Shown here: positions 22,987 to 39,086 of the stretch, piece after piece
How positions within the stretch are numbered: the stretch's first letter is position 1
Layout of the letters: each line of letters starts with the position of its first letter
IMG/VR virus record: IMGVR_UViG_3300023112_000009
Span: 61,610-125,609 of that record
Strand: one strand, 5' to 3'
Length of the DNA: 64,000 bases
Source: a virus
Notes under the pieces: model-generated
What the model was told of the DNA's origin: nothing
The model's database searches: none
The model's input: only the letters and a program-made list of their open reading frames with translations
Translations under genes and position numbers: made by a program

Positions 22987-23041
22987 ATAACCTAGGGGCC
23001 AGGGTTGACAAGCCCTGGCCCCTATGCTATACTGTATTCAC

Positions 23042-23263
23042 ATGGGAAGACATACCATTGGGGACCGACGCGGTTCCGTTCGGGGGGCTCCCCCCGACGT
23101 TTACATGGGGTTTGCATCGGCTGACGATGGGGACTCGGAAGCGATGGACGAAGCCATCACTTTGTTTGGCCGGTTTGTATTGTATGCTGTCGGCTCAATT
23201 GTTCTTGCTACAATCGCGGTAATCTTTTCGGCTGTCGGGTGCATTCCTGATATTTCGGATTGA
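23042..23263 (+). CDS. Small membrane protein
   Basis: Promoter TTGACA-N17-TATACT; C-terminal TM helix. Confidence 0.55.
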   Translation: MGRHTIGDRRGSVRGAPPDVYMGFASADDGDSEAMDEAITLFGRFVLYAVGSIVLATIAVIFSAVGCIPDISD

Positions 23264-23342
23264 TCTTTTTTCAGGGAGTCGCTTGACAAAGCGGCTCCCT
23301 GAGGTATACTGTCAGTGTTCGAGAGGACATGAAAACTCATAT

Positions 23343-23535
23343 GGGGCGGTAGCTCAGTCTGGCCAGAGCGGGGGGATAATCTCCCTCGATCAAAGGGTCT
23401 TAGCTAAGGATGTTTAGGGTAGCTCCCGAAGGTGTCCACGGCAGCAAAATAGTAGCCTATTCTGTTAGATCTAATGATGTTGCTAAATACTAGTACGTGC
23501 AATTTGTCGCAGGTTCGAATCCTGCCCGCCTCACC
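23343..23535 (+). ncRNA. tRNA-like RNA with a ~120-nt insertion
   Basis: GGGGCGGTAGCTCAGTCTGGCCAGAGC 5' half and GTCGCAGGTTCGAATCCTGCCCGCCTCACC 3' half; own promoter at 23283-23310. Confidence 0.75.
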
Positions 23536-23728
23536 TTTTTCCCAGTTTTCACTTGACAGCCTGTAAGGCGTTTTCAGCCCGCGAGGAATATGCCCGCGTG
23601 TCTATACTACGTCCGATTGTAAAAAGGTCGGGAGAACGGCTTAGAGAGCGTCTGAGAGAAAATCGCCCTCTTGAAAAAAGAAAAGGGTTATCTACTTGCT
23701 TTCTGTTCTTTCGAGGGTATACTCTGGC

Positions 23729-24361
23729 ATGACGATCAAAGCACTAGAACAAGCCATCGGCGGGCTTTCCAATCCCTCCAAAATGCCGGGATGGTCCTAT
23801 GGGATCCCGGCTTCCGCGTGCAAGATCGGGGCCATCCTTCGCAAGATCAAGCGTAGCGTGTGCTCCAAGTGTTACGCTTTCAAGGGTATGTATGTTTTCC
23901 CGGTTGTGAAGGAAGCACAAGCCCGTAGGCTTGCCATTCTCACGGGGGATCTTGAAACGTGGCAAGGGGATATGATCCAATTGCTTTCTTTCAAGTATCG
24001 CAAGAAAACGGGGGACGATAGGGTATTTCGCTGGCATGACGCGGGGGATATCCAATCGGAGGATCATTTTCAAGCGATTGTGAATATCGCTCTTGCCCTT
24101 CCCGATATCCAATTCTGGATTCCCACAAAAGAGTATGACCTGATTCGCCAGCACGCCCACAAGGCCCCTGCTAACCTCGTGGTGAGGGTTTCGGCCCCGA
24201 TGCTAGGGGATACCCTTCCCATGATCCCCGGCACGGTAGGGAGCACGGTAGGGACCGGCAAGGGCTTTGTCTGTGGAGCGTACACTCGGGAAGGCAAGTG
24301 TGGACCCTGCCGAGCGTGTTGGGATAAATCGGTGGAATGGGTTGACTATCCCCAGCACTAG
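23729..24361 (+). CDS. Phage GP88-like Cys-rich protein
   Basis: GLSNPSKMPG, C..CSKCYA.KG.Y, FRWHDAGD, CGPCRACWD. Confidence 0.8.
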   Translation: MTIKALEQAIGGLSNPSKMPGWSYGIPASACKIGAILRKIKRSVCSKCYAFKGMYVFPVVKEAQARRLAILTGDLETWQGDMIQLLSFKYRKKTGDDRVFRWHDAGDIQSEDHFQAIVNIALALPDIQFWIPTKEYDLIRQHAHKAPANLVVRVSAPMLGDTLPMIPGTVGSTVGTGKGFVCGAYTREGKCGPCRACWDKSVEWVDYPQH

Positions 24362-24374
24362 GGTATACTAGAGT

Positions 24375-24501
24375 GTCGCTTAGGAAGTGGCCTCGCTGGA
24401 CTCGCAAGAGAATGGTCAGCGTCGGGGGCTCCGATCAAGGGGAAACGGAGAAGCGACTATGAATGAGTGAGGCCCGGTGTCAAAACCGGGTCTCTTCTCT
24501 T
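24375..24501 (+). ncRNA. Candidate small RNA with own promoter and terminator
   Basis: TTGACT..TATACT, then GTCGCTT/AAGCGAC closing stem with two internal hairpins, then a hairpin with pyrimidine tract. Confidence 0.5.
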
Positions 24502-24719
24502 AGACCTCCTGTAAGCTCGCTCACGGCCACCGGCTCAAATCCGCGTGTCTATACTACCTTGTTTTGGACTCGTGCCCGCCTAGGGGCCTTGTAGGCCGCA
24601 CAATGGCTTATCTTATTTCTAGCAAAATCTCCTTGCCTTCCTGTGTTTTGACCGTATAATGTACCCATGAACGCGGACGATCAATACGACTGGTGGGAAA
24701 GCAAACCCAAGGAAAAACA

Positions 24720-25031
24720 ATGAATCAAGTCATCGAATGGATTTGGCAACGGCCCGCACGGGCTTTCAAGGTCTACTACAAGGGCAGCCGCTCCAATGCG
24801 ATCACAGAGAAGTGTATCGAGTGTGCCTGCACGCTCAAGGAGGCCAAGGAGTGTGAGATCTCCGATTGTGCCCTATGGTGCTTCCGTCCCGGTGCTACCA
24901 AGGGAGAGGTTCCCTCGTTCGTACCGCCTCAGGACGAGCTACAAGCCTTGGCAGACGCTAAGGTTCCCGATGCTGTCCGCGAGCACGCTCGCAAGATGGG
25001 CAACGCACGGAAGGAAGCTAGCGAGGAGTGA
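24720..25031 (+). CDS. Cys-rich hypothetical protein
   Basis: AI..KCIEC..C..CALW.FRP motif; GGA RBS. Confidence 0.7.
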   Translation: MNQVIEWIWQRPARAFKVYYKGSRSNAITEKCIECACTLKEAKECEISDCALWCFRPGATKGEVPSFVPPQDELQALADAKVPDAVREHARKMGNARKEASEE

Positions 25032-25084
25032 GGTTTCTCCTAATCCTGCTTGACTTCTACCCATTTCTAGGGTATTATCTAAAC

Positions 25085-25243
25085 ATGAAGAGAAGGAAGA
25101 AAAAGAGAAAGCCCAAGGCGGCTGAACAAGGACAACGGGGGGCAGGAGCTATGGCCAACGCTACCCGTGGTAGGGCACGACGATTCACTGACAAGCCCAA
25201 AGCGGCTAACAAGACAGCCTGTAGGGGCAAGGTAGAACTATGA
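25085..25243 (+). CDS. Small very basic protein
   Basis: Leaderless start after TTGACT..TATTAT. Confidence 0.6.
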   Translation: MKRRKKKRKPKAAEQGQRGAGAMANATRGRARRFTDKPKAANKTACRGKVEL

Positions 25244-25590
25244 GCACGGACGAAATGAATGCGATCCTAGGCCCGTGTCCTATTTGCAAAAAGGTCAAGT
25301 GGTGGTATAATGACTTGCCGCTTAGGGCCTTCTGCTGGGGATCACCAGACGACGAACACAAAGAGGTGTCCAGGGTGGCACCAACACAACGCAAGTACGC
25401 ATGAAAGAACGAATCGAAGCTTTCTTGGCAGCCCTAGCAGCCGCGTCCTACTACGATCCTAGCTCGGATAGCTCAGAAGTATTTCAAGGTATGTTCATCG
25501 AGCCCGATGGGGATTACATTGATAGACAAGAGTTGGAAGCATTAGTGAAAGAACATTTGACTTCCACCGATTAGGTGTTATACTGTAACC

Positions 25591-25821
25591 ATGAGCGAAC
25601 AAATCACAATCACAGAGAAGGTCCGCATTGGACTGGACGAACTGATCGCAGACTACAAAGCCTGTTGGTCATGGCAACACGAAAGCTTCTATTCCTTCCT
25701 GAGTGAGAAGGTGGCAGAAAAACTGGATCGTGAACTGGACAACTTCCAGGTTATGTGCTACTCTGTAGTAGGTCACGAACACGACGCCGTTATCTTTGAA
25801 GTCGAGAGGTACGAAGAATGA
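25591..25821 (+). CDS. Hypothetical protein
   Basis: Leaderless start after TTGACT..TATACT. Confidence 0.7.
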   Translation: MSEQITITEKVRIGLDELIADYKACWSWQHESFYSFLSEKVAEKLDRELDNFQVMCYSVVGHEHDAVIFEVERYEE

Positions 25822-26018
25822 CACTACGCTGCAAAACCTGCAACTCAAGCGACGTTCGGCAAGAGTGGACGGCCATGATTGACCCGAACGACGACGATTG
25901 CATGAAGGACTTTGACCCCACCACGTTGGAGTACAATGAGTTTGAGTACTGTCTTGACTGCGAAGACACGACGGACACCTACGACGACACGATGAAAGAC
26001 TTCAACTATTACGCTTGA
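25818..26018 (+). CDS. Acidic zinc-ribbon protein
   Basis: CKTC..CLDC. Confidence 0.65.
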   Translation: MTLRCKTCNSSDVRQEWTAMIDPNDDDCMKDFDPTTLEYNEFEYCLDCEDTTDTYDDTMKDFNYYA

Positions 26019-26047
26019 CATTCTCTGTTTTCAAGCTATACTAGAGC

Positions 26048-26302
26048 ATGAAGAAAGAAAAACTAGCTCTCATCAAGGTCATGGACGAGTGTTTGTGTTC
26101 GCCTGATGGAATGAGCGACAACGCTTACACGGTAGCATACGCTGCACTCGAAGACGATGATGAGATCGTGGATATCTTGGAAGCCGTAGAGGCGACCGAT
26201 GGACGGTTCTACTTTCCCGAGTGTCATGTGGGCATTGAGAACATGCTCCGCGTAGACGTTGGGAGCCGACACGAACAGGACGAGCAGCCGTCCGAGGGAT
26301 AA
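26048..26302 (+). CDS. Acidic hypothetical protein
   Basis: Leaderless start after TTGACA..TATACT. Confidence 0.7.
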   Translation: MKKEKLALIKVMDECLCSPDGMSDNAYTVAYAALEDDDEIVDILEAVEATDGRFYFPECHVGIENMLRVDVGSRHEQDEQPSEG

Positions 26303-26736
26303 GAACCCAGAACAGGCTGAAACGGTATCTCTCACGCTGGGGAGCGGTAAGGGGGTGCCTTGAAAGGCGGAAGACTAAGCATGGGGTCGTTTGAACCGCT
26401 AATACCTCCCGCGATGGATCGCCCCCGATACGCACGGTCGAGAGGTATACTGCCACAATTGTAGAAGGCTGAGAAAACCCTTTACCTCTTTTTAGAAGTG
26501 CGGGAAAAGACGTTACTGTAAAAATAGGCTTCTGCCATATTGGCATAGGGAAAACTTTTCCACGTCAATTTGGCAGGCTCCTGTAAGCTCGCCTACGGCC
26601 ACGGGCAAAAACGCAGGTAGTATAGACACGCGGGTTTGCCGCCATGCCCGTACAGGGCCGCACAGGACGTGCGAATTTCCAGCAACAAAATCCGAAATCC
26701 GTTTGCTTCTCCCGATTGTGGAGGTATAATGAAGGC

Positions 26737-27282
26737 ATGAAAGCAATCAATCAAGCCACCCTGATCGACACGATCAACGCCGTCAAGGGTGCCACGTTCG
26801 CCACGATCATCACCGAAACCGATGCCCGCCTCAAGAAAACGGGCAACCCCTTCGGTCCCGTCCGCAAGATTTCCCGCGTCAACGTTTGCCTCGGTTTCCA
26901 GTATGAGGCCGCTGTAAATCGTCAACGCATCCGTGAGGATTCCGAGGCCGATTTCGAGGCCCGTCCGCGTCAATGGGGCGAGCGTATCTCGGCCATGCTG
27001 ATCGGGCACAAGGGACGGACCTATCTCGAAACCAAGGTCCAGCGTGCTCTCGAAACGTCCTACATCGACGCCACGGGCAAGGAACTCTCCAAGGAAGATG
27101 TTCGCCCCTTCCTTCCTGCACGCTCCAAGAGCCGTCAAGAGGTCGCGGACGAGGTTATCGTCCGAGACTACGCTCTCGATTCGATCCGCTCGCTGGCCTT
27201 CGGTGGCGAAACGTACCTCTTGACTCAAGCAACGGCACCCGTGGCCGTCAAGATCGCCCGCACTCAACCCGTCACGAAATAA
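26737..27282 (+). CDS. Phage early hypothetical protein
   Basis: 181 aa; ATG 6 nt after TATAAT; YEAAVNRQ and HKGRTYL motifs. Confidence 0.8.
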   Translation: MKAINQATLIDTINAVKGATFATIITETDARLKKTGNPFGPVRKISRVNVCLGFQYEAAVNRQRIREDSEADFEARPRQWGERISAMLIGHKGRTYLETKVQRALETSYIDATGKELSKEDVRPFLPARSKSRQEVADEVIVRDYALDSIRSLAFGGETYLLTQATAPVAVKIARTQPVTK

Positions 27283-27454
27283 AGCCGCCAGGAGGCCCCG
27301 CAAGGGGCCTCTCTTGCGTTGTGCCGCGTCCTAGAAAATCCAAGGTAGTATAGACACGCGGGCGGGCGGGCGGTGGCCGTAGCGGGCAGCACAGGAGCCT
27401 GAAATAAATAAGGTTTAGAGTTTGCATTTTCGAGTGGAGAGGGTATACTGTGGC

Positions 27455-27649
27455 ATGAGTAAAGCACACACATGGAATGGCGAGCCGCCCCGGCACATCG
27501 AATACGCTCGGAACCTCGCCACCCGCTTGGGGAGAGCTAACATCAGCACCCGTATCGGGATGCCGATCAAGAGGATCCCCGTCACTGAAACCATTTCGGA
27601 GAAAACCAAACGCATTCTTGCCGAGTGCGATGCAATTCTCTGCAAGTAA
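27455..27649 (+). CDS. Cassette protein family A, copy 1
   Basis: Paralog of 28638-28832 (PRHIE.A.NLATRLG..TETISEKT.R.LAECDAILCK). Confidence 0.8.
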   Translation: MSKAHTWNGEPPRHIEYARNLATRLGRANISTRIGMPIKRIPVTETISEKTKRILAECDAILCK

Positions 27650-27726
27650 ATCAGAAAAACAGTTTGCCTTTTCCACTGGGGAGGGTATACTGTAATTGTT
27701 CGAGAGAAAACAAACAAAGGAATGCA

Positions 27727-27915
27727 ATGGAATTCAAAGAATGGATGAAAGCGATGAACCGCCACATTTCCGCCAAAATCTGCTTGGATGCTGGCGACAT
27801 GCCCGATCTGTGCTTTCGGGATATGTTCGAGGATGAAATGACGCCGAAAGAAGCGGCGGAAAACTCGCTCGAAATCTGGGCAGAACAAGGGGACGTTCCC
27901 TACGATCTGATCTAA
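27727..27915 (+). CDS. Small acidic protein
   Basis: Own promoter and AAGGA RBS. Confidence 0.7.
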   Translation: MEFKEWMKAMNRHISAKICLDAGDMPDLCFRDMFEDEMTPKEAAENSLEIWAEQGDVPYDLI

Positions 27916-28119
27916 CGCACTAGGAGGCCCCGCAAGGGGCCTCGCTTGCGTTGTGCCGAGACCTAGAAAATCCCGCGTGGCTTAGCCACACGGGGTCAAG
28001 GTCCGTGCCCGTACAGGGCCGCACAGGAGGCCAAAAAAGAATTGGCTTTCTACTTGCATTTTCGAGCGGGGAGGGTATACTGTAGCAGATTCGAGGCCAC
28101 TAACCAACGGAGTAACCGA

Positions 28120-28461
28120 ATGAATCAGAACATCATCAGCACCGATCAAGCCGCCAACCTCATTCACCAGAGCAACGGGACCGTGTTCACGGTCGGGTTC
28201 TACAAAAAGGGGAAAAAGAACGGGGAGGGCAAAAACGACTTCCGCGAAATGCGTGCTCGCCTCGGCAGCACGGTTCGCAAGGGGCTTGCGGGTGGCCCGC
28301 CCGCCTACAACCCTTCCGAGCACGGGCTTATCTGGGCCTACCTTATGGCGGGGGATGAGAACCGCGAAGAGGCCCGCAACCGCCGTAGCATCCCGGTGAG
28401 CGGCATCGTGGAATTGAACATCGGTGGCGAGTCCTATCGGGTCGCCGGATCGCCCCACTAA
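28120..28461 (+). CDS. SH3/WYL-like beta-barrel protein
   Basis: FTVGFYKK..REM.ARLG..RRSIP..I..L.I.G pattern. Confidence 0.6.
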   Translation: MNQNIISTDQAANLIHQSNGTVFTVGFYKKGKKNGEGKNDFREMRARLGSTVRKGLAGGPPAYNPSEHGLIWAYLMAGDENREEARNRRSIPVSGIVELNIGGESYRVAGSPH

Positions 28462-28637
28462 AAAACACCGCAGGAGGCCCCGCAAGGGGCCTCTCTTGCG
28501 TTGTGCCGCGTCCTACAAAATCGTGCGTAGTATAGACACGCGGGCGAGCCGCCCGTGCCCGCACAGGGCAGCACAGGAGCCTGAAATAAATAAGGTTTAG
28601 CGTTTGCTTTTCTAGCTCACGAGGGTATACTGTCAAC

Positions 28638-28832
28638 ATGAAAACAAAGAACATCACGGAGTACAAGGCTCCCCGTCACATCGAATTCGCACAGAACCTC
28701 GCCACCCGTTTGGGCAAGGTGGGAATCAGCACCCGCATCGGAAGGCCGGTCAAGGTGGTGATCGTGACCGAAACCATTTCGGAGAAAACCCGCCGCGTGC
28801 TCGCTGAGTGCGATGCAATTCTCTGCAAGTAA
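28638..28832 (+). CDS. Cassette protein family A, copy 2
   Basis: Paralog of 27455-27649. Confidence 0.8.
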   Translation: MKTKNITEYKAPRHIEFAQNLATRLGKVGISTRIGRPVKVVIVTETISEKTRRVLAECDAILCK

Positions 28833-28912
28833 AATCCAGAAAACAGTTGCCCTTCCCGCTGGGGAGGGTATACTGTAACGGTTCGAGAGACAGCAAACCA
28901 ACGGAGACAACG

Positions 28913-29164
28913 ATGGAACACGACGACGGCCCGGAAGAGTTGTGGGATGATGCGGAAGAGTTCGAGCGTGACGAGCTTGCACGGTTCTTAGCGGCCTATC
29001 CCGATGGCTGGACATGTCAGGATTGCTCCTGCGAATACCTGCCGGGAGAATGCCATCCCGTCATGCCAGCCGAAGACCTAGACGGTTGGGTTGCTGGTGA
29101 CGGCACGGTTTGTCCGCTGGGCCACGGATGCAAAGAGGACGAGGCCGAGGATCTGCCCTTCTGA
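28913..29164 (+). CDS. Acidic Cys-containing protein ending EDEAEDLPF
   Basis: Promoter and GGAG RBS. Confidence 0.7.
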   Translation: MEHDDGPEELWDDAEEFERDELARFLAAYPDGWTCQDCSCEYLPGECHPVMPAEDLDGWVAGDGTVCPLGHGCKEDEAEDLPF

Positions 29165-29801
29165 TGGACGAGATAGAATTCTGCAAGAGGCAGGCGAAAG
29201 CCTGTCTCTTGTTTCTAGTGCTCTTGCCCGTGGGCGTTGTTGTCGCCGTGCTTTGGGTTTACGGTTTTTAGCCACAGGAGGCCCCGCAAGGGGCCTCGCT
29301 TGCGTTGTGCCGCGTCCTACAAAATCGTGCGTAGTATAGACACGCGGACAAGGGGCCGGTGGCCGTACACGCCAGCACAGGAGGCCAAAAGAAAAACCAT
29401 TTGCTATTTGCTTTTTCAAGGGGTTGTGGTATACTGTGGCATGGATGAACGACAAGAGCTTGAAGACGAATACAACGCCCGCTATGGCGATCCTCGCCAC
29501 TGCCCGCATCACCCGATGGTGCAGACCTCTTCGGGTTGCGGCAACTTCGATGCCCCTTGTGGGCTTTGCGAGTCCGAGATGGACGAGTACGATACGGTGG
29601 ATCCCGATTGGGTTCCCGAGCCGTGGGTTGCTCCCGAAGAGGACGAGGCCGAGGATCTGCCCTTCTGATGGACGAGATAGAATTCTGCAAGAGGCAGGCG
29701 AAAGCCTGTCTCTTGTTTCTAGTGCTCTTGCCCGTGGGCGTTGTTGTCGCCGTGCTTTGGGTTTACGGTTTTTAGCCACAGGAGGCCCCGCAAGGGGCCT
29801 C
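29133..29801 (+). repeat. Exact 165-bp direct duplication (29133-29297 = 29637-29801) containing a 35-aa TM peptide ORF
   Basis: Identical text at a 504-bp offset; ORFs 29164-29271 and 29668-29775. Confidence 0.92.
29441..29668 (+). CDS. Acidic Cys/His protein ending EDEAEDLPF
   Basis: Leaderless start; CPHH..CGLC. Confidence 0.7.
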   Translation: MDERQELEDEYNARYGDPRHCPHHPMVQTSSGCGNFDAPCGLCESEMDEYDTVDPDWVPEPWVAPEEDEAEDLPF

Positions 29802-29944
29802 TCTTCCGTTCTCCCGCGTTCTACAAAATCGTGCGTAGTATAGACACGCGGGCGGGCGGGCCGTGCCCGTAGCGGGCCGCACAGGAGGTCAAAAAGATTT
29901 GGTTTTCCATTTGCTTTTCTAGCTTCCTAGGGTATAATGTAAAC

Positions 29945-30073
29945 ATGAACAACAAGGAAGACAAGCGGATCGGCAAGAAGGCACTGGGCCACACTCCCCA
30001 CTGCAAGTGGGGCCGCAAGAAAGCCAACAAGAAAAGCCGCAGTGTTGCGAAAAAGGAGTTGCACAATGTATAA
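29945..30073 (+). CDS. 42-aa basic peptide
   Basis: ATG 6 nt after TATAAT. Confidence 0.55.
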   Translation: MNNKEDKRIGKKALGHTPHCKWGRKKANKKSRSVAKKELHNV

Positions 30074-30293
30074 CGACGATTGGATGGATCCCGAGCCCGA
30101 GGAAGAGGTTGAGCCCATCAACCCCGAAGGGGACAAGGGACCGAACTACCTCCCCGACCCCGACCTTGACGGTCCCTACAAGGGTCCACCCGTGGGCACC
30201 TATGCCTACACCGCTTGGCTGATGGCTCAATCGGGCATGGATCCTGACGAGGCCGACGCCTGGAAGGACGAGATGAAAGAGCGAGATTTTTAG
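30066..30293 (+). CDS. Acidic protein with PEGD.GPNYLPDPDLD motif
   Basis: Motif shared with 34855-35100. Confidence 0.7.
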   Translation: MYNDDWMDPEPEEEVEPINPEGDKGPNYLPDPDLDGPYKGPPVGTYAYTAWLMAQSGMDPDEADAWKDEMKERDF

Positions 30294-30503
30294 TCAACAG
30301 GAGGCCCCGCAAGGGGCCTCTTCTGCTTTGTGTCGCATCCTACAAAATCGCAGGTAGCTTAGCCACGCACGATTGAGGCCACGCCCGCACGCGGCAGCAC
30401 AGGCAGCCACAGGGCAAACAAAAGAAATCACAAATACCATTTGCTTTTTCCAGCGGTTGTGGTATACTCTCGGTGGATTCAACAACAGCAACGGAGACAA
30501 GAC

Positions 30504-30683
30504 ATGCAAATCACCATCACCACGATTGACGACTCGGACGACGACTGCCGCAGGACCACCTACGAGACCCGCGTGGACGGCAAGCTCTACACGCTCGCCG
30601 CGTGCTCCCTTCGAGGGGAAGGCGTTGAGGAACGTGCTCGCGAGTTGTTCGGTGACGACGTGGAAATCGTTTGGGAATTCTAA
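30504..30683 (+). CDS. Cassette protein family B (DCRR motif), copy 1
   Basis: Paralog of 32018 and 39087. Confidence 0.78.
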   Translation: MQITITTIDDSDDDCRRTTYETRVDGKLYTLAACSLRGEGVEERARELFGDDVEIVWEF

Positions 30684-30757
30684 AGAAAGGACTTGCATCT
30701 GCCCGATACAGTGGTATACTGTTAGTGAGTCAAGGAAACAACACAACGGAGACAACA

Positions 30758-30973
30758 ATGAACGAGCAAAACGAAATCGGCGGCGACCTTCAAGACGAGT
30801 ACACCGCCATTCAAGAGGCCGAGCTTCTCGAAGAGAGTCCGATCATGGACCTCACCGATCAAGACTTGGAGGGCTGGTATCAGGAATGGCTCTCCGAGCA
30901 GGACGATCCCGCGAGCATCGACCCGGACTTTTACGATCCCCGCGTGGACTTCGGCCCCGATCCCCGCGACTAG
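30758..30973 (+). CDS. Highly acidic protein (MNEQNEI start)
   Basis: N-terminus shared with 35591-35764. Confidence 0.7.
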   Translation: MNEQNEIGGDLQDEYTAIQEAELLEESPIMDLTDQDLEGWYQEWLSEQDDPASIDPDFYDPRVDFGPDPRD

Positions 30974-31184
30974 CACACTTGTTGCTTCTCTCCTATGCTC
31001 CCTGGCGATTTAGGTCGTCAGGGGGCCTTTCCATGTGCCTAGGAGGCCGCAGGACGAGGGCTGCAAAAATCAAGGTAGCTTAGCCACGCAGGGTGAAGGC
31101 CCGTGCCCGTACAGGGCAGCACAGGAGCCCAAAAGAAATCACAAATGGAATTTGCTTTCTAGCCAATTGGGAGTATTATTGGGC

Positions 31185-31661
31185 ATGAGAAACAAGCAAC
31201 AGATTCAGGGCCAAGCGAGGGCCATCCTGAACAAACTCGCCCCGCAGTACCCCGTGCTGGCAAACCTGCCGATTCGCATTTCGACCCGTATGACACGGGC
31301 CGCTGGTCAGGCTTCCTGGCGAGGTGGTATCCCTGTCGAGATCACCCTTTCGCTCCCTTTTTTCGCAGATGAGGCGAACGACCTACATCGTACCGTAACG
31401 CATGAGGCGGCTCATATCGTCGCTGGCCACGCTGCTGGTCATGGCCCCACGTGGAAGGCTGTACACCGTAGCATGGGCGGCAAAGGCGACCGCTGCCACA
31501 CTATGAGCCTTGCGGAAGGTTTCAAGCATACTCCCCGCAAGCGTGCCCCGCGTGTCGAGGTGACTTGCCCCAAGTGTAGCCAACCGATGCTGCTGGGGCC
31601 TACGCAAGCCAAGAAGGCACAACGGGGCTATCGCTACACGCACGCACGCTGCCCGAGATAG
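31185..31661 (+). CDS. SprT-like zinc metalloprotease
   Basis: RMTRAAG, TVTHEAAH, GHGPTWK, RCH, CPKC. Confidence 0.88.
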   Translation: MRNKQQIQGQARAILNKLAPQYPVLANLPIRISTRMTRAAGQASWRGGIPVEITLSLPFFADEANDLHRTVTHEAAHIVAGHAAGHGPTWKAVHRSMGGKGDRCHTMSLAEGFKHTPRKRAPRVEVTCPKCSQPMLLGPTQAKKAQRGYRYTHARCPR

Positions 31662-31720
31662 GGTAAAGAAAAATCCCTTCTCCCGCTTGACTTCAAGCGG
31701 GGGGAGGGTATACTGCAAGC

Positions 31721-31930
31721 ATGAAAGAACAAACAACATTCGTCCTTCGCAACACGGGCACCTCGCGATTCGTCAAGACGAGCCCCCACGAGTTCCTTGA
31801 CGAGAACTTTGTCGAGGGGTGGGATAACCTCGCGGCTCGTGGTGCTCTGACCTTCGGGACGCACGAGGCGGCTCTGATCGCCAAGGATGCTGACCCCGAT
31901 GGCTGCTCTCTCGCTGTCGAGGAAATCTGA
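31721..31930 (+). CDS. Hypothetical protein
   Basis: Leaderless start after TTGACT..TATACT. Confidence 0.7.
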   Translation: MKEQTTFVLRNTGTSRFVKTSPHEFLDENFVEGWDNLAARGALTFGTHEAALIAKDADPDGCSLAVEEI

Positions 31931-32017
31931 TAAACAAAACCCTTTTCCCGCTTGACATTCGGCGGGGATGGGGTATACTGTCAGCGTTCAAGGAAACAAC
32001 AGCCAAGGAAACAAGCC

Positions 32018-32224
32018 ATGAAACTTCAAATCGAATACAACGACGCCTGCCGCAGGACCACCTACGAGTCTGACGACGACTGCCGCCGCGTGGACTACTG
32101 CGTGACCGTGGACGGCAAGGAATACTGCCTTTCCGGTTCTGCTCTCGGCAACGAGCACAACGACCGCGAAGCCACCGAGCGTGCTCGCGAGTTGTTCGGC
32201 CCCGACGTTGAGCTGATCTTCTAA
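32018..32224 (+). CDS. Cassette protein family B, copy 2
   Basis: DDDCRR..VDGKEY..ERARELFG. Confidence 0.78.
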   Translation: MKLQIEYNDACRRTTYESDDDCRRVDYCVTVDGKEYCLSGSALGNEHNDREATERARELFGPDVELIF

Positions 32225-32697
32225 GAGGCTGCCAGAATGGCGGGGGCCACGGCCCCCGCTGAGCCCCCTGCCTGCCCCCACACGGGGAGCGGCCCCGACC
32301 CCCTGTGGCTTAGCCACGCGGGCACGGCACTCGTGCCGGTAGAGCGTATCCCAGGCCCCTTGTGATGCCTGCTATGCGTTACGCTTTTTCGGTTTCTCGC
32401 TTGACTTCTGCCAATCGCATGGTATACTGTGGCATGAAGTTGAGCAAAGAAGATATGGAGTTCGCCCACGACACTATCCACGGTGCCCGCGAATACGCCG
32501 AATCCGCCTAACATGTACTCACTGACCTACAACGGAGAGCAACTGGCCGAGTGGACTATCCCACGCGGTTGGCTGCCCTCCTTTGGTACGCTGCTGGCCG
32601 TGAAATATCACGGTAGGCTGACGCTATTTCGTGCGATGGGAATTCAAGAAAGGGAAATTCTGCTTGACATCTACCAATCGTAGGGTATACTGTGGGC

Positions 32698-32895
32698 ATG
32701 AAGCAACAAGAAACAACCGAGTTCGCACAAGCCGTCGCCGGGAACTGTGACCGTTGGGTGCCCGCCTGTGGTGGCCACGAGCAACCGTTCACCCACAACG
32801 GCACTCGCTATCTGTACTGCTTCAACCCAAACAAGCACGAGCACGGGTATATCAATCTGGACACCGATATTCTGGAGACCACGCTGCCCTTCTGA
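32698..32895 (+). CDS. Cassette protein family C, copy 1
   Basis: Near-identical to 35142-35348 (WVPACGGHEQP..RYLYCFNP..HEH.Y.NLDTD). Confidence 0.8.
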   Translation: MKQQETTEFAQAVAGNCDRWVPACGGHEQPFTHNGTRYLYCFNPNKHEHGYINLDTDILETTLPF

Positions 32896-33074
32896 ATCCG
32901 AGACCACGAGGAGGCCCCGAAAGGGGTCTCTCGTGCGTTGTGCCGCGTCCTACAAAATCGCACGTAGTATAGACACGTTGGCTTGCGGTTCGTGGCCACC
33001 ACGGGCTGCACAGGAGGCCAAAAAGAATTACCATTTACAATTTGCTTTTTCCAGCGTGGAGGGTATACTCTAGC

Positions 33075-33221
33075 ATGGTTGAAGAAAACAAAGCACTGAC
33101 GAAGGCGGGCTGGGTTCTGGTTCGCATCACTGACGCCCAAGGCTTGGTTGTCTTTTGTGAGACGGTCAGGGACGAGGACGCCGAAAGCATCATCGCCAAG
33201 TTCCGCAACACAATTCGCTAA
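33075..33221 (+). CDS. Cassette protein family D, copy 1 (48 aa)
   Basis: G.V...TD..G.VV..ETV...DAE shared with 34702-34845. Confidence 0.68.
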   Translation: MVEENKALTKAGWVLVRITDAQGLVVFCETVRDEDAESIIAKFRNTIR

Positions 33222-33261
33222 AACAACTGGACACGCCCCCGAAAGGGGGCTATACTCTGAC

Positions 33262-33444
33262 ATGCACATTCACGACCCCGACTGGACAGGCCCTATCTGT
33301 CGCAACTGTACCGCCCCCGTCAAGAGCCTGCACATGATGGCACAGCATCAAGAGGCTTGGAACAAAGCGAAAGCGAAAGATTCCGAAGCAAAGGAACCGC
33401 CGCACTTCTGCTCAAACCAGTGCGTCTACGACAAGTACATGTAA
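33262..33444 (+). CDS. Small zinc-finger protein
   Basis: CRNC..FCSNQC. Confidence 0.65.
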   Translation: MHIHDPDWTGPICRNCTAPVKSLHMMAQHQEAWNKAKAKDSEAKEPPHFCSNQCVYDKYM

Positions 33445-33679
33445 AACAAGGCCCCTAGCTCTGCTGGATCACAACAAGAGAACCGGCTCTCTCTGTTCAC
33501 TGATCGAAGCCGCTAGGGGCCTTTTCTACCCACCTGAGAGCCCGCGTGCCGAGCCCTACAAAATCGCAGGTAGCTTAGCCACGTTGGCTTGCAGCCGGTG
33601 GCCGCACACGCCCGCACAGGAGGCCAAAAGAAATCACAAATGGTATTTGCTTTTTCGAGCGTGGAGGGTATACTCTGAC

Positions 33680-33874
33680 ATGCAAGAACAAACAAACCCC
33701 TTTGAAAAGGGAACTGACAAACACGCCCAATGGGAAGAGTTGGATTGTCACGAGTGCCGAGCCGCACTGAGTGATTCGATGTATCCCCGCCATAGTGGCA
33801 GCCGCAACTGCAATAGTGGCAGTATCGCCTCTGGCGGCAACAGATCGCACTGCACTTGCGACACTTGTTTCTAA
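33680..33874 (+). CDS. Small Cys/His-rich protein
   Basis: CHEC..P.H..S.NC.SG..HCTCDTCF. Confidence 0.7.
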   Translation: MQEQTNPFEKGTDKHAQWEELDCHECRAALSDSMYPRHSGSRNCNSGSIASGGNRSHCTCDTCF

Positions 33875-34217
33875 ACACCGCAGGAGGCCCCGCAAGGGGC
33901 CTCTTTTGCGTTGTGCCGAGAGCTACAAAATCGCAGGTAGTATAGACACGTTGGCAAGAGGTCGGTGGCCACCACGGGCCGCACAGGAGCTTTCTCTTTT
34001 TCTTATTTCAAGCTTGCATTCTTGTCAATTGAGGGTATACTCTGGCATGGATACAACAAAAGAAAATCTCAAGGTCGGCCTCGGAATCCTCCTGCCCTTC
34101 TACGTGATCGCGGCGGCCTACTGCTTCGAATTGTTTATGCGATATTTCGCTTGACATTTCGAGCGGAGAGGGTATACTCTCACTGTTCAAGAGCAACCGA
34201 AACCAACAGAAAGCAAC

Positions 34218-34484
34218 ATGGAACAAGTAAACGCAAGCGGGACCGGACTTCGAGGATACGTGGACGTGAGCTACAATCGACTCGTGGAAGTGTTCGGGGA
34301 GCCGCACTACCGCATGGGCGACAAGACCACCGTGGAGTGGTCCTTCGAGCACGAGGGTACGCGATTCACCCTGTACGACTACAAGTGGCAATCGGCACAG
34401 TCGGACCTCGTGGAACCCTTCCACGTTGGCGGCAATAGCCCGGAAGCGGTCAACGTGGTGCGAGCCCTGCTACTCGATTCCTGA
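34218..34484 (+). CDS. Phage hypothetical protein
   Basis: L.GY..VSY..LV.VFGEP..DKT..EW..FT.YDYK pattern. Confidence 0.75.
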   Translation: MEQVNASGTGLRGYVDVSYNRLVEVFGEPHYRMGDKTTVEWSFEHEGTRFTLYDYKWQSAQSDLVEPFHVGGNSPEAVNVVRALLLDS

Positions 34485-34701
34485 GACTGCCAGAATGGCG
34501 GGGGCTACGGCCCCCGCTAGGCCGTCTCTCTGCTCGTGTGCTGGCCCCGAGCCGATGCCCGCGTGGCTAAGCTACGCGGGGTGGGCGGTGGTCGCGGCAC
34601 GCGGCCTCCTGGGTGCCTTGTGGGGCCTGCTATGGCTTATCTTTTTTCGAGCTTTCTCCCTTTTCCATTTGCATTATCCGCTGGACGTGGTATAGTCTAG
34701 C

Positions 34702-34845
34702 ATGTTCGAGATCAAAGAAGCCCGCAACGGATACGTCGTCCTGACCGTCACCGACAGCCGTGGCACCGTGGTCCTGCACGAGACCGTCAAAGAGTACGAC
34801 GCGGAAGAGATCGCGGAGAAGTGCCTCCGCGTTATCCGCCCCTAG
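34702..34845 (+). CDS. Cassette protein family D, copy 2
   Basis: Paralog of 33075-33221. Confidence 0.68.
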   Translation: MFEIKEARNGYVVLTVTDSRGTVVLHETVKEYDAEEIAEKCLRVIRP

Positions 34846-34854
34846 GAGCATCCA

Positions 34855-35100
34855 ATGAGCAAGTTCACCGACCCGATCCGCAACCTTCGCCGCTGCCGCT
34901 TCTGCGGCCTGGATACCATCGAGGCGGCCTGCATCGAGGCCCACGAGGAGGGCTGCATCGACAACCCCGACAATGAGTGCGAGGTCGAGTACATCGACCC
35001 CGAGGGGGACCGTGGCCCGAACTACCTGCCCGACCCGGACCTTGACGACCTCCCTTCGGATGCGTTCGAGGACTGGCGAGACGATTGCGACTTTTCCTGA
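34855..35100 (+). CDS. Zinc-finger plus acidic PNYLPDPDLD protein
   Basis: CRFC..HEEGC; GGAG RBS. Confidence 0.7.
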   Translation: MSKFTDPIRNLRRCRFCGLDTIEAACIEAHEEGCIDNPDNECEVEYIDPEGDRGPNYLPDPDLDDLPSDAFEDWRDDCDFS

Positions 35101-35141
35101 TTTTCCGTTTGCTTTTCTCGCCCACCGTGGTATAGTAGAGC

Positions 35142-35348
35142 ATGAAGCAACAGGAACAAACAAACGAATTCGCTCAAGCCGTCGCCGGGAACTGTGACCG
35201 CTGGGTGCCTGCCTGCGGCGGCCACGAGCAACCTCTCACCTTCGCGGGCACGCGGTACCTGTACTGCTTCAACCCGAACAAGCACGAGCACGCCTATCTC
35301 AACCTCGACACCGACCTGATCGAGCCCTTCCCGCCCTTCTTGAGCTAA
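35142..35348 (+). CDS. Cassette protein family C, copy 2
   Basis: Paralog of 32698-32895. Confidence 0.8.
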   Translation: MKQQEQTNEFAQAVAGNCDRWVPACGGHEQPLTFAGTRYLYCFNPNKHEHAYLNLDTDLIEPFPPFLS

Positions 35349-35590
35349 ACACGAGGAAAAGAAAAATGCGAGACCCTCCAAAACGAGGCTATACGCGGCC
35401 TAGCCCACCGCACGATTTTTTGGCACTGGAGGCTCCACAAGGGGCCTCGTTTGCGTTGTGCCGAGACCGGCAAAAATCAAGGTAGCTTAGCCACGCGGGA
35501 AAAACGTAACGCCCGCACGGGGCCGCACAGGAGGTCAAAAAGATTTGGTTTTCCATTTGCTTTTTCCAGCGGATAGGGTATAATACAAAC

Positions 35591-35764
35591 ATGAACGAGC
35601 AAAACGAAATCAACGGCGACCTCCGCGACGAGTACCTCCAGATTCAAGAGGACGAAGCGTTTGAGGTCCACTGTGCCGAGTGTGGGGACAGTATCGGCTT
35701 CACAAGCTGCGAGATCACGGCTACCAGCATGACCCTTTGCTGGCCCTGCCACGATCAGGACTAA
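35591..35764 (+). CDS. Small acidic zinc-finger protein (MNEQNEI start)
   Basis: CAEC..CWPC. Confidence 0.65.
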   Translation: MNEQNEINGDLRDEYLQIQEDEAFEVHCAECGDSIGFTSCEITATSMTLCWPCHDQD

Positions 35765-35881
35765 GCCCGGTGGGGGCATGACCCCCATCGGGTGCCGACC
35801 CTGCCACCGAGGGGCATGATCCCCTCGGTGGTAATCGGCTTTTCTGTTTGACTTTTCCAGCACTGAGGGGTATAATACAGC

Positions 35882-36061
35882 ATGAAAGCAACAAACATCG
35901 AACTGGAAGGAATCGACACCGGAGACTACCCGGATTTCTGTGATGCGTTCATCGCCTACGCCGAGCACGAGGACGGTACGCCGTTCACTGAGGCAGAGCT
36001 TGAGATTCTGAACATGGACACCGACCTCATTCACAATCTGGTTTTCGAGGAGATGCAATAA
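35882..36061 (+). CDS. Small acidic phage protein (DYPDFCDAFI motif)
   Basis: Leaderless start after TTGACT..TATAAT. Confidence 0.72.
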   Translation: MKATNIELEGIDTGDYPDFCDAFIAYAEHEDGTPFTEAELEILNMDTDLIHNLVFEEMQ

Positions 36062-36232
36062 TCGCCTCACGAGGCCCCGCAAGGGGCCTCCCTTGCGTTC
36101 TCCCGAGTCCTACAAAAACGCAGGTAGCTTAGCCACGCGGGCGGGCGGGCCGTGGCCGTAGCGGGCCGCACAGGAGGTCAAAAAGATTTGGTTTTCCATT
36201 TGCATTTCTAGCATAGCGTGGTATACTGGGGC

Positions 36233-36364
36233 ATGAAGAAAGCAACCGAGTACGAAGTGAACGAACTCCTCACCATCGGCCCTATCGTTATCACCGAGTG
36301 TGGCGAGGAAAACATGTACTTCACGCTAGCCGATGGATCCACCGGATTCTGCAAAGCGTTCTAA
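36233..36364 (+). CDS. 43-aa protein
   Basis: Sole ORF between two repeat elements, with its own promoter. Confidence 0.6.
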   Translation: MKKATEYEVNELLTIGPIVITECGEENMYFTLADGSTGFCKAF

Positions 36365-36558
36365 GTCGCACACGAGGCCCCGCAAGGGGCCTCTCTTGCG
36401 TTGTGCCGAGAGCGGCAAAAATCAAGGTAGCTTAGCCACGCGGGAAAAACGTAATGCCCACACGAGGCAGCACAGGAGGCCAAAAAGATTTGGTTTTCTA
36501 CTTGCTTTTCTAGCACAATCGGGTATACTCTCAATGTCTCAAACAACGGAGAAAAGAC

Positions 36559-36813
36559 ATGGAACGCAAAGTAATCAAAACAGACGGCACCACCACCAGC
36601 ACTTGGGTTGGCGACGGGTTCGAGTCCTGGAACGAGGCCATTGGTGCCCGTGTGGGAACCATCGTGGTGAGCCCCGACCGCACGGTCGAGCTTTGGTGCG
36701 ACGACGAGGGCCTGATGGTGGCAGAGCCGCAGCTCAACCTTGCCGCGTCCATGCTGGTAGGCCAGCAGATCGTGGGCGACGTTATCTACTTCATGCCGGG
36801 AGATATCAAATAA
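36559..36813 (+). CDS. DUF3846-like protein
   Basis: LWCDDEGL..LNLAAS..IVGDVI. Confidence 0.75.
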   Translation: MERKVIKTDGTTTSTWVGDGFESWNEAIGARVGTIVVSPDRTVELWCDDEGLMVAEPQLNLAASMLVGQQIVGDVIYFMPGDIK

Positions 36814-37164
36814 AGCCACGAGGAGGCCCCGCAAGGGGTCTCCTTTGCTCTGTGCCGAGACCTACAAAATCGCAGGTAGCTTAGCCACGCTGATTTCCCG
36901 CCATGCCCGCACGCGGCAGCACAGACAGCCACAAGCCAATTTCTCTTTTTCAAGCTTTCTCCTTGTGTTTTCTCTGTTGGGCGGTATACTGAAACATGAA
37001 GAAACTACTTGTTGCAGCCGCTTGGACATACGTCGCTCTCTACGCTTTCGAGCTTTACATGAGGTATTCTTCGTGAAAGTTTTTCGAGGAATCATGTGGG
37101 CAATTGCCATAGAACTTTCCGTAGTTTGCATTTGCTTTATTGCGGTGACGTGCTATAATAGAGC

Positions 37165-37923
37165 ATGAAGTTAGAACAAACGTTCGAGGTAGCCGAGTGG
37201 GAAGAGACTGGCGAAACGGGTTTCAAGCCCGTACCCTCTGGTGATGATTGGGATCCGCTAGCGTACGCTCCTGGCCTTGCCCATGATTTCATGGAACACG
37301 CGGGCCAGTTCTCCCTGCGTGGTGAGACCAAAGCACATGCCGCTATGTTTTTCATGCGGTACGAAACTGGCTACTGTCCCCGCCTACCGTACGCCAAGCC
37401 TTTAGACCTAAACAGCTTTAGCCAAGAATGGGTAACGCTGTACAGAGGAATGGAGCAAGGGGCAACGCTTAGCGAATGCAAGCCGCAAGAGAAGCTAGAT
37501 GACATGCAAGAGGAAGAACTAGCCGAGATCGTATCTAAGGGCAAGAGAGCTATTCTAGCTGAGATCGAGAGAGAATGGCTCAACGTTGACGCCTACGCTA
37601 TGCTGTCCAAGCATTACGCGGAATGGTTCCGTAAGGGCTACCACGAAGCCGCTGCACGCTATAGCCGCATAGGTGCTCACGGTGCCCAATTTGCTTTCGA
37701 TCAAGTCTTGCAGTACTTCCTAGGGCAGCTATCGGGAGAACTCCAGTCAGGAAATAAAGTCAATATTTCCCTTGACCTTGAAACAGGAGAATTGACATTT
37801 CAAGAGATCAATCAGTGTTGGACGTGTGGGAATGATTGCGAGGATGAAACCTGCGAGGATTGCCAAGAGTACGACAAAGAAGAGGAAGAGCCCTTGACTT
37901 ATGAGCAATTGGGGATAGAATAA
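37165..37923 (+). CDS. Hypothetical protein with C-terminal CxxC motifs
   Basis: 252-aa ORF with leaderless start. Confidence 0.75.
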   Translation: MKLEQTFEVAEWEETGETGFKPVPSGDDWDPLAYAPGLAHDFMEHAGQFSLRGETKAHAAMFFMRYETGYCPRLPYAKPLDLNSFSQEWVTLYRGMEQGATLSECKPQEKLDDMQEEELAEIVSKGKRAILAEIEREWLNVDAYAMLSKHYAEWFRKGYHEAAARYSRIGAHGAQFAFDQVLQYFLGQLSGELQSGNKVNISLDLETGELTFQEINQCWTCGNDCEDETCEDCQEYDKEEEEPLTYEQLGIE

Positions 37924-38412
37924 GACATGAACCAGAAGCGAACACGCCGCCACGCTATGAAGCACGAAACAGACAACGGGGGCGATGCCCTAGACATAGG
38001 TAAGCGTATGGCGGGGGCTGGTGTCCTACTGATGACACTAACGCCGATTGCACTAGTGATATCCGTACTATGGGTTTCATGCACGCAAGCCTAAAAGAGC
38101 ATGGGGGTCGCTGTGATGCGTCTCCCTGCCCTTGTGCCGCGTCCGCTGAAAAAACAGATAGTATAGACACGTTGGTTTGCAGTTCGTGCCCTTAGAGAGC
38201 TTCCCAGGATTTGCTAGCAGTGGGAATACCTTCTTTAATGCACCCTCATGTGGAACATTTTTCCGTACCGTTTCCGCACACGGAAATTTTTTCTGTACCA
38301 TTTCCGCACGCGAAAATTCTTCCATTTTCCTGCCATTATGGCATAATCGGCCAATATGGCAATTCGCCTATATTCGGGCTTTTCTCTCAAGTTCATTTTT
38401 CGAGAATTCCCC

Positions 38413-38933
38413 TCAAGCCATATCCGCCCCATGCCGATAGGTGGGGTATGATTGAGCAGGAAAGAAGAATCGACCCGTATCGGGCTACCCTCGACTACAT
38501 GATTGAGACCCTTGTCCTATGCGGATATGACCGTGAAGAGATCGAAAAAGAATTAGAAGAAGTACAAGAACAAGCTCAACTTGAGCAAGAGAACACCCGA
38601 TAGGTACGGTATGAACAATCACCAAGAAAAAATGAGCAAAGCAGACATCCTCGATACCATCCGATGCGGATTCGATCTTCTCGCCCTGGAGAACAAGGGC
38701 GGGCGAGGAAATAAGGCAAGGCACGGCACGGCATATGTACCCGATCCTATCAAAATCGACGCTATGGCCAAGCGTATCGAAGCCAAAGCCAAAGCCGATC
38801 CTACTCGCCTAGGGGGCGAGACGCTGGAGGATATTCTCCCCTAGCCTATCCAGAGCCCCCCCTACGGGGGCTCATTTTCTTTTCGAGAAAAGCAAGAGAG
38901 CACTAAGGGTAGAGAGCCCATCCGCCGATAGGT
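38413..38933 (+). promoter_or_regulatory. Three sigma28(FliA)-like promoters
   Basis: TCAAG/TCAAC/TAAGG-N15-(G/C)CCGATAG; CCGATAGGT at 38434, 38597 and 38925. Confidence 0.5.
38611..38844 (+). CDS. Hypothetical protein
   Basis: ATG 5 nt after CCGATAGGT; followed by a hairpin terminator. Confidence 0.6.
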   Translation: MNNHQEKMSKADILDTIRCGFDLLALENKGGRGNKARHGTAYVPDPIKIDAMAKRIEAKAKADPTRLGGETLEDILP

Positions 38934-39086
38934 ATGGTAGGCAAGGAAAACCAACCAACCAACCAACCAACCAAGCAAACACAATGTTCAACGCTCACAA
39001 TATCGCCGTTCTCGCCGCCCTCTCCGCTTCCGCTTTTGTGGTCTACAGCCTGTATCTTCTCGCCGTTTCCACGGGGGCCTTTTAGA

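Follow-up and report, generated by a model that had tools for sequence, protein, structure and literature searches.

Repeated palindromic modules of fixed geometry at early-gene cassette boundaries of an environmental phage clade: a candidate control site for a distinct promoter class

The closest described counterparts of the element reported here are the promoter early stem-loops (PeSLs) of T4-type phages. As set out in two reports (PMC2839356, PMC4122927), a PeSL joins a stem-loop and an A/T-rich stretch to a strong sigma-70-like early promoter, and tens of copies stand before small genes of unknown function; the motif bounds insertions, deletions and replacements between relatives, and homologous recombination is the mechanism proposed. 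Here we describe an array of 20 modules at 23555..38213 (+ strand) of a 64,000-nucleotide window, which forms the latter half of one virus contig of 125,609 bp (IMGVR_UViG_3300023112_000009, positions 61,610-125,609; this genome is called G000 below). A sequence-only reading of the window had already pointed to about 20 elements of fixed geometry, and to PeSLs, aptly, and the host-takeover module of SPO1 as analogues.

The likeness to PeSLs lies in the composite of stem-loop, A/T-rich stretch and sigma-70-like promoter, in the plastic region of small unknown genes, and in insertions and deletions bounded by the module. However, the PeSL stem-loop is within or beside the promoter, whereas here it stands ~130 bp upstream, with a conserved polar palindromic element of ~50 bp in between. 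The geometry is also unlike that of the five PeSL subclasses described in PMC2839356, and the present module has fixed spacing, a quantised promoter distance, its own −35 type and, by prediction, mostly leaderless mRNAs. The phage itself may not be a T4-type virus: Pfam gives no match for three large proteins encoded beside the terminase gene, while a T4-type large terminase, an RIIB-like protein and an RNA ligase are present.

Between 23.5 and 38.2 kb every gene lies on the + strand, and G+C is 52-57%, compared to 44-49% elsewhere in the window. This early region holds 43 small open reading frames (ORFs) and ~37 sigma-70-like promoters, and its proteins are small and frequently acidic or cysteine-rich. 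The module repeats in one order: a hairpin; a 33-nt left arm; a 13-bp core; GCGG(G); ~11 variable nt; GTGSCCG-N3-5-(C)GGGC; (G)CACAGG(AG); 25-35 A/T-rich nt; TTGCWT; 16 bp; and TATAMT. In the representative unit (27292..27457, + strand), the hairpin occupies 27292-27311, the left arm, which is specific to this genome, 27312-27344, the core 27345-27357, the right arm 27358-27388 and the box GCACAGGAG 27389-27397; an A-rich stretch then leads to a −35 hexamer TTGCAT at 27422, a −10 hexamer TATACT at 27444 and an ATG at 27455.

The number and the spacing of the repeats hold up as the sequence-only reading had them. The core, GT[AG]G[CT][AT]TAG[AC]CAC at one mismatch or fewer, has 20 sites in the window (23598-38170), and the rest of the 125,609-bp genome adds just one, with 1 mismatch, located 46 kb upstream of the window. 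For the hairpin GAGGCCCCGCAAGGGGCCTC, three mismatches or fewer allow 12 matches, all on the + strand between 27292 and 36842, where 100 shuffles gave an expectation of 0. One exact copy, of terminator type, is at 27292..27311, and the other 11 start at 27924, 28474, 29278, 29782, 30301, 32911, 33884, 35429, 36071, 36374 and 36823, likewise on the + strand; two of the 12 were listed as terminator-like. All 12 copies that bear the hairpin have 53 nt between its start and that of the core (the earlier figure was about 54). When the aligned copies were read by eye, YACAGG began 44-45 nt past the start of the core in almost every one; an automatic finder that tolerated one mismatch chose false matches lying ahead of the box in some copies. 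Orientation is uniform in most copies only: the asymmetric core is reversed at 23598, 24545 and 34563, the first of these being inverted as a whole, and copy 26617 has mirror arms on both sides.

We found the element in six related records as well. A terminase search returned ten IMG/VR contigs at 60-80% identity, and the terminases are 68-80% identical in six element-bearing genomes where measured. A sequence-only model (R1) built from 38 right arms was run alongside a pattern search, and copies were counted by eye. R1 matched 23 sites in G000 (125.6 kb, 69% complete; 20 copies by eye), 27 in G004 (154 kb, 99% complete; 14 copies), 21 in G011 (170 kb; 10 copies), 8 in G007 (152 kb; 9 copies), 6 in G001 (169 kb; 3 copies), 1 in G002 (complete; 1 copy) and 1 in G008 (complete; 1-2 copies). 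With a weak match in G012, 8 of 12 records were matched; R1 had no match in four relatives, and some of these records break off at the expected place of the early region; in G009 that region is at a contig end. Each complete genome of the clade holds at least one copy. The element belongs to this phage clade, because 80 more distant contigs (833 kb) that encode GP88, the family of the first gene of the array, had no element match. Viral contigs with a GP88 gene are far more numerous than these, making up 587 of the first 600 candidate stretches.

The features that agree across the genome consensuses are the core TRGCTWAGCYA, its GC/GCGG flank, GTGCC, GG(G)C and (Y)ACAGG, while the remainder is uniform only within a genome. 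Of the boxes that the sequence-only reading had assigned to the unit, the left-arm boxes CTTGCGTTGTGCCG and CTACAAAATC are specific to G000 and are not conserved in relatives. A few bases ahead of the core there is always a homopolymer run, of A in G000, G001 and G007 and of T in G004, G011 and G002. The SprT-like genes of G000 and G004 provide a direct comparison of orthologous copies: their proteins are 44% identical, the cores upstream of them are identical at 12 of 13 positions and the 31-nt spacing between core and YACAGG is equal, whereas the spacer itself is identical at only ~13 of 31 positions (hand count). Because core and spacing were kept while the spacer diverged, we infer selection on the boxes and their spacing rather than mere copying. 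In the full-text collection searched, supplements aside, four papers each contained one of the core strings, in contexts that, judged by title, are unrelated, and no description of the motif was found.

A sigma-70-like promoter follows 19 of the 20 copies and fits a relaxed consensus (TTGMMW, 16-17 bp, TATAMT) with 10-12 points out of 12; promoter-like sites number 26, compared to 7.8 expected. In 16 of the 19 element promoters the ATG lies 4-6 nt past the −10 hexamer, and the mRNAs would therefore be leaderless. The promoter that the sequence-only reading had placed after every unit is thus present in all but copy 38158. A further 18 good promoters in the region have no element, and for that reason the element marks junctions behind a terminator or a non-coding stretch, not promoters generally.

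The distance between core and promoter falls into discrete classes. Among 48 copies in six genomes, the core-to-(−35) distance is 75-78 (14 copies), 85-88 (25), 96-99 (5), 105-106 (2) or 118-119 bp (2), with none between. Using 12 genome-by-class values, which share ancestry, the best period within 5-20 bp is 10.4 bp (R 0.81), with p 0.0006 within 9.5-11.5 bp and 0.003 for any period. The additional ~10 bp are placed differently in different genomes: in G004 they are 10-12 unrelated bases after the box, in copy 30354 of G000 they are a duplication of the box, and in G007 they lie inside the right arm, such that the core to YACAGG distance is 54 instead of 44-45 while the core to −35 distance is still 86-87 in 9 of 9 copies. 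We take the phasing seriously because these extra turns arose in different ways.

Within G000, the distance is 77 for the cores at 27345..27357 (GTAGTATAGACAC), 27977..27989 (the perfect palindrome GTGGCTTAGCCAC), 28527..28539, 29331..29343, 31075..31087 (upstream of the SprT-like gene and without the standard hairpin), 33570..33582 and 33937..33949. It is 78 at 32964..32976, 76 at 29835..29847 and 36124..36136, and 75 at 35482..35494 and 36427..36439. Longer distances occur at 30354..30366 (87, with ~10 extra bp and a duplicated CACAGG box), 36876..36888 (87), 32305..32317 (96; a perfect palindrome in a 'type 2' unit behind a hairpin TGCCAGAATGGCGGGGGCC...) and 34563..34575 (106; core on the − strand, in a 'type 2' unit, with the core asymmetry reversed). 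Three copies open the array: 23598..23610 (− strand, the inverted element; −35 at 23696, −10 at 23718 and the ATG of the GP88-family gene at 23729), 24545..24557 (− strand, an inverted core flanked by an arm on each side, with its promoter hexamers at 24633 for the −35 and 24655 for the −10) and 26617..26629 (+ strand, a full dyad in which the left CCTGT...CGGCCAC mirrors the right arm; −35 at 26703). The last copy, 38158..38170 (ATAGTATAGACAC), closes the array and is the one without a convincing promoter behind it. Except where stated, the cores are on the + strand.

The promoters behind the element also differ from the others in their −35 hexamer. The element-linked −35 is TTGCWT, but element-less promoters mostly have TTGACW. 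Pooled over five genomes, TTGCnn is found in 28 of 33 element-linked promoters versus 16 of 47 element-less ones (Fisher p 9e-6); the corresponding figures are 16/17 versus 5/18 in G000 and 9/11 versus 2/14 in G004. In T4, the MotA box is wwwTGCTTtA, 12 +/- 1 bp from the −10 (PMC2988021). The element-linked −35 region, (A/T)TTTGCTTTT, comes near to that box and likewise replaces the consensus −35; however, TTGCTT here lies 16 bp from the −10, so that the box would end 14 bp away rather than at the 12 +/- 1 of T4. Searches for MotCF (PF09158) and AsiA (PF09010) gave no match in any of five genomes, with controls equally silent.

Upstream sites that act at a distance are found in other systems: the KorB operators of plasmid RK2 are 13-bp palindromes, and Fis sites and an UP element lie upstream of rrnB P1. 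The present arrangement is similar in that many promoters have a copy of a 13-bp palindrome ahead of them, at a distance of tens to more than 100 bp from the start site, and A/T-rich DNA separates this site from the −35 hexamer. It differs in that the sequence is unrelated and that G000 has no ParB/KorB-type gene (no match to ParB_N, PF02195).

We favour, with a probability of about 0.5, the reading that this is an extended boundary module of the PeSL type, in which the palindrome and its arm are bound by a protein and, in phase with the helix, control early promoters of a distinct class, and in which cassette shuffling is a by-product of repetition. The module has three parts: a G+C-rich hairpin that, in the + strand RNA, would serve as terminator or 3′-end stabiliser of the preceding unit; a polar DNA element of ~50 bp, comprising an A- or T-tract, an 11-17-bp palindrome (GC)GTRGCTWAGCYAC(GC), GCGG, GTGCC..GGC and YACAGG; and an A/T-rich stretch with a host-type promoter, its −35 off consensus (TTGCWT), with a leaderless mRNA predicted in most cases. 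A dimeric protein, encoded by the host or by a core phage gene, would bind the palindrome ~105-145 bp upstream of the transcription start, would share one face of the helix with the YACAGG box and the −35 hexamer, and would set the whole promoter class by activation, timed shut-off or architecture. The protein-bound DNA site of the sequence-only reading is thus the part of its proposal that conservation across seven genomes, the ~10.4-bp spacing, the −35 type and the null results for RNA structure (below) point to, although no binder was found.

Several observations weigh against this reading. First, promoter activity would not require the element, given the 18 good promoters that have none, and no promoter follows copy 38158 or the last copy of G004. 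Second, the periodicity test is not independent of ancestry, and collapsed to the five distance classes it gives R 0.80 with p 0.10; the 105-106 class is ~2-3 bp off phase and distances spread from 75 to 78 inside one class, for which reasons we softened a strict version of helical phasing. Third, the association between element and −35 type could have been inherited together rather than being functional. Fourth, there is no DNA-binding family match among 27 early-region proteins, in which Pfam matches were to GP88, SprT-like and DUF3846 only, in addition to three PHROGs of unknown function. Similarly, none of 237 G004 ORFs (at least 60 aa) is present in G011 and G007 yet absent from G008 and G009, a weak test given that no complete genome of the clade lacks the element and that the early region of G009 is at a contig end. 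All eight genomes compared have 74 ORFs in common.

The GP88-family gene (PF17338; 23729-24361, + strand), the first of the array, was considered as the element reader and set aside. It has invariant Cys clusters, is present in six of the seven related genomes compared (absent in G002) and has more than 2,000 metagenome members, but it has no sequence match in PDB. Its AlphaFold2 model (predicted local distance difference test, pLDDT, 88.4) gave no Foldseek match at E ≤0.001, and the best VIA match (QueE, Z 6.8) suggests a weak likeness to radical-SAM partial TIM barrels and not to a DNA binder, which also counts against the favoured reading. The candidate readers of the palindrome are therefore host factors, conserved phage proteins and very small proteins.

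Among the alternatives, all of which we regard as unlikely, the one that fares best is a topological or insulator element, in which the palindromes, or gyrase or topoisomerase bound to them as at repetitive extragenic palindromes (REPs) and bacterial interspersed mosaic elements (BIMEs), manage supercoiling between strong tandem promoters or block read-through. Such an element would also act as protein-bound DNA, but not as a regulator of initiation. The setting is suitable: the element always separates a terminator-type hairpin from the promoter that follows, a copy of it stands at either end of the array, its core can form a hairpin of 5-10 pairs, and ~37 promoters are packed within 15 kb. 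However, this explanation accounts neither for the ~10.4-bp distance classes nor for the special −35 type, and the gyrase consensus is not reliably scorable here. The 640-aa HATPase_c protein that adjoins the RIIB-like protein of G000 is more likely rIIA than GyrB.

It is less probable again that the module is transcribed, as a read-through 3′ UTR (untranslated region) or a short antisense RNA, and acts as a signal for processing, stability or termination, for which the RNase III sites between the early genes of T7 are the comparison. On the − strand of G000 the core hairpin is followed by GATTTTG, such sites were listed as terminator-like, and G.U pairing fits the − strand for eight GTAGC..GCCAC cores. 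In G004, G011 and G002, however, a T-run replaces the A-run and the look of a − strand terminator is gone; wobble in G004 favours either strand; and the T-run ahead of the core in G004 and G011 leads us to expect little read-through RNA. A known RNA family is not evident either, as Rfam has no match at E ≤1 on either strand of window positions 23000-39000.

Structure prediction likewise gives an RNA reading no support. When 38 copies were folded on both strands there was no common structure, minimum free energy z-scores were mostly ~0, and the + strand folded better in 17 of 38, which is no strand bias. A single long hairpin formed by left and right arms was rejected, as folds differ from copy to copy with z-scores ~0. 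Two local hairpins, in the core and in the right arm (15 pairs, 38 copies), were rejected as conserved structure, being without covariation: 63.0% of cells are paired versus 63.1% in shuffled alignments, and covariation is 0.123 versus 0.120, a value matched or exceeded in 201 of 500 shuffles. Conserved palindromic sequence would by itself yield such apparent pairing. In addition, within G004 the asymmetry of the core (R at position 3, Y at position 11) can point towards the arm or away from it, and therefore fits a symmetric site for a dimeric protein and neither RNA strand. The terminator hairpin, in contrast, does carry an RNA signature: its three variant stems (32911, 35429, 36823) all still pair through G.U on the + strand only. 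In this the hairpin, unlike the palindromic element, behaves as expected of an RNA structure.

The cassettes differ between populations and between genomes. We aligned contigs of four runs, each from a different study, on the array; stretches without contig cover in some runs (e.g. 33840-34973) were counted only if a contig joins across. The joint 28579->29891, bridged by a 403-nt contig, removes two cassettes in 4 of 4 runs; it starts at the end of the GCACAGGAG box of the unit with core 28527 and is received by the unit with core 29835. A second joint, 33619->36476, leads from the GCACAGGAG box of the unit with core 33570 to the unit with core 36427; it is seen in 3 of 4 runs, where about five cassettes are missing as a result. 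In one run (X6), the joint 32997->30420 reorders cassettes, starting in the right arm behind core 32964, 11 nt before the box. These three are the module-located joints among the 15 listed of 37; the other listed joints lie inside paralogous genes (28793->27614, 28978->35047) or diverged stretches of genes. Between G000 and G004 about a dozen cassettes are common and their order is partly different, others have counterparts in G011 or G007 alone, and many occur in a single genome, giving a mosaic of cassette content relative to G004, G001, G011 and G007.

Shuffling of cassettes, as the sequence-only reading had proposed, is therefore real, but the integron-like route that it had suggested is not supported. 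No recombinase was visible to that reading in the window, and this extends to the rest of G000 and to five relatives (G004, G011, G001, G007 and G002, four of them at least 90% complete): tyrosine recombinases (PF00589), serine recombinases (PF00239) and Y1 enzymes (PF01797) gave no match in any of these six genomes, while controls matched in 14 of 14 genomes for the first family and control genomes were matched for the other two. Breakpoints inside genes are such as ordinary homologous recombination would give. Homologous exchange between the ~190-bp repeats is enough to explain the cassette changes, and under the favoured reading cassettes would be duplicated, deleted and reordered by homologous recombination between the ~20 copies of the module.

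Several early genes form diverged paralogue pairs, the members of which reside in different cassettes (27455-27649 and 28638-28832; 32698-32895 and 35142-35348; 33075-33221 and 34702-34845; 30504-30683 and 32018-32224), with hybrid joints in the population between some of them, such as 28793->27614. A stretch of ~116 bp ends two neighbouring cassettes (29160-29275 and 29664-29779) and includes an acidic ...EDEAEDLPF tail, a small hydrophobic ORF and the hairpin, which suggests that a recent duplication broke within a gene.

A history of copying alone is a further explanation, and an improbable one: the 90 bp between terminator and promoter would have no function of their own, be copied with the module and be kept uniform by gene conversion. 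This would account for a left arm and much of a spacer that are uniform per genome and different between genomes, for the identity of nine of the 12 hairpins, and for unit segments that partly share their history. Independent assortment of these segments is only partly true (Mantel r 0.05-0.55), and we therefore claim no single crossover point. However, the core, GCGG, GTGCC, GGC and YACAGG and their spacing are kept across seven genomes, while the sequence between the boxes is scrambled.

The module also resembles integron attC sites and REP/BIME (REPIN) elements in having imperfect palindromes 3′ of gene units with variable cassette content. In integrons, however, cassettes are read from a common promoter and here they have their own, with no IntI-type or serine enzyme; and compared to REP/BIME systems there is no Y1 (RAYT, REP-associated tyrosine transposase) enzyme, and sequence variation gives no support to a folded single strand. 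Least probable of all, then, is that the element is a site for site-specific recombination (integron-like, REP/RAYT-like or a Chi-like hot spot at YACAGG) that sets the cassette edges, since the three joints near the GCACAGGAG box (two at it, one starting 11 nt ahead), the whole inversion of element 23598 and the many cores that start with GTAG, as REP heads do, are set against the absence of all three enzyme families in the six genomes, the promoter on every cassette, the further joints inside paralogous genes and the fact that box plus A-tract form the longest shared stretch, where homologous exchange would resolve anyway.

Several other features of the region were noted. Within the array, classical promoters of the PeSL layout occur without the element, at 31687-31720, 31952-31985 and 33228-33262; in these the −35 lies inside a G+C-rich hairpin or the spacer forms one (e.g. 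CCCGCTTGAC..GCGGG), and the same layout is present in G002 (L033 7318-7373). A second conserved palindrome family, TGCCATAATGGCA / GCCAATATGGC / TGCCAGAATGGCG, is found in the window at 26536-26548, 38332-38344, 38352-38363, 32229-32241 and 34487-34499, where it borders the early region or heads the 'type 2' units; it recurs in G008 (L173 3888, 4813, 7350) and in G004, and may be a second operator. Direct repeats TTTTTCCGTACCGTTTCCGCACACGG / TTTTTCTGTACCATTTCCGCACGCG lie at 38255-38325, just past the last copy of the element, and there is no clear ORF between the early array and the next block of genes. Two promoter-led stretches, 24342-24500 and 26302-26600, have no convincing ORF and no Rfam match at E ≤1, and the first ends in a terminator-like hairpin (24469-24494); these may be small RNAs.

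The palindrome also occurs outside the clade. As a candidate host operator, CGTGGCTWAGCCACG has at least 120 matches in genome contigs of many phyla, nearly all single, which is the chance expectation and uninformative; L001, from the first pattern scan, is likewise a chance match. In a Sedimentisphaerales contig of a metagenome-assembled genome (L069, 820-1180), each unit of a ~91-bp tandem repeat contains TCGTGGCTTAGCCACGTT, the same palindrome in an unrelated context and probably a coincidence.

G000, with an estimated completeness of 69%, carries 15 tRNA genes and encodes a nicotinamide phosphoribosyltransferase in addition to the proteins named above. A blastn comparison of window positions 27200-30400 with 50,697 deposited phage records gave no match. 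The array is present, whole or in part, in 24 public DNA runs from seawater, sediment and hydrothermal-vent samples; no RNA run is listed among the 24, which weighs neither way.

The early or 'host-takeover' regions of large phages contain most of their unknown genes, and their regulation and exchange are known in detail for only a few model phages. The present case adds a cis element that is sharply defined and conserved in a clade of environmental phages, whose geometry can be measured and which is paired with its own class of promoter. With it one can test whether shuffling boundaries of the PeSL type may also hold a dedicated regulator site, with the palindrome as bait for the regulator. 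More tentatively, we suggest that in this clade of uncultured marine phages a distinct class of leaderless early promoters (−35 TTGCWT) is run through a single upstream operator or enhancer, the 11-17-bp palindrome with its polar arm, placed at whole helical turns (~7, 8, 9 and 11), such that one protein could switch up to 20 cassettes together, while the same module is also the substrate for their exchange. If true, regulation and evolvability would be combined in one DNA element.

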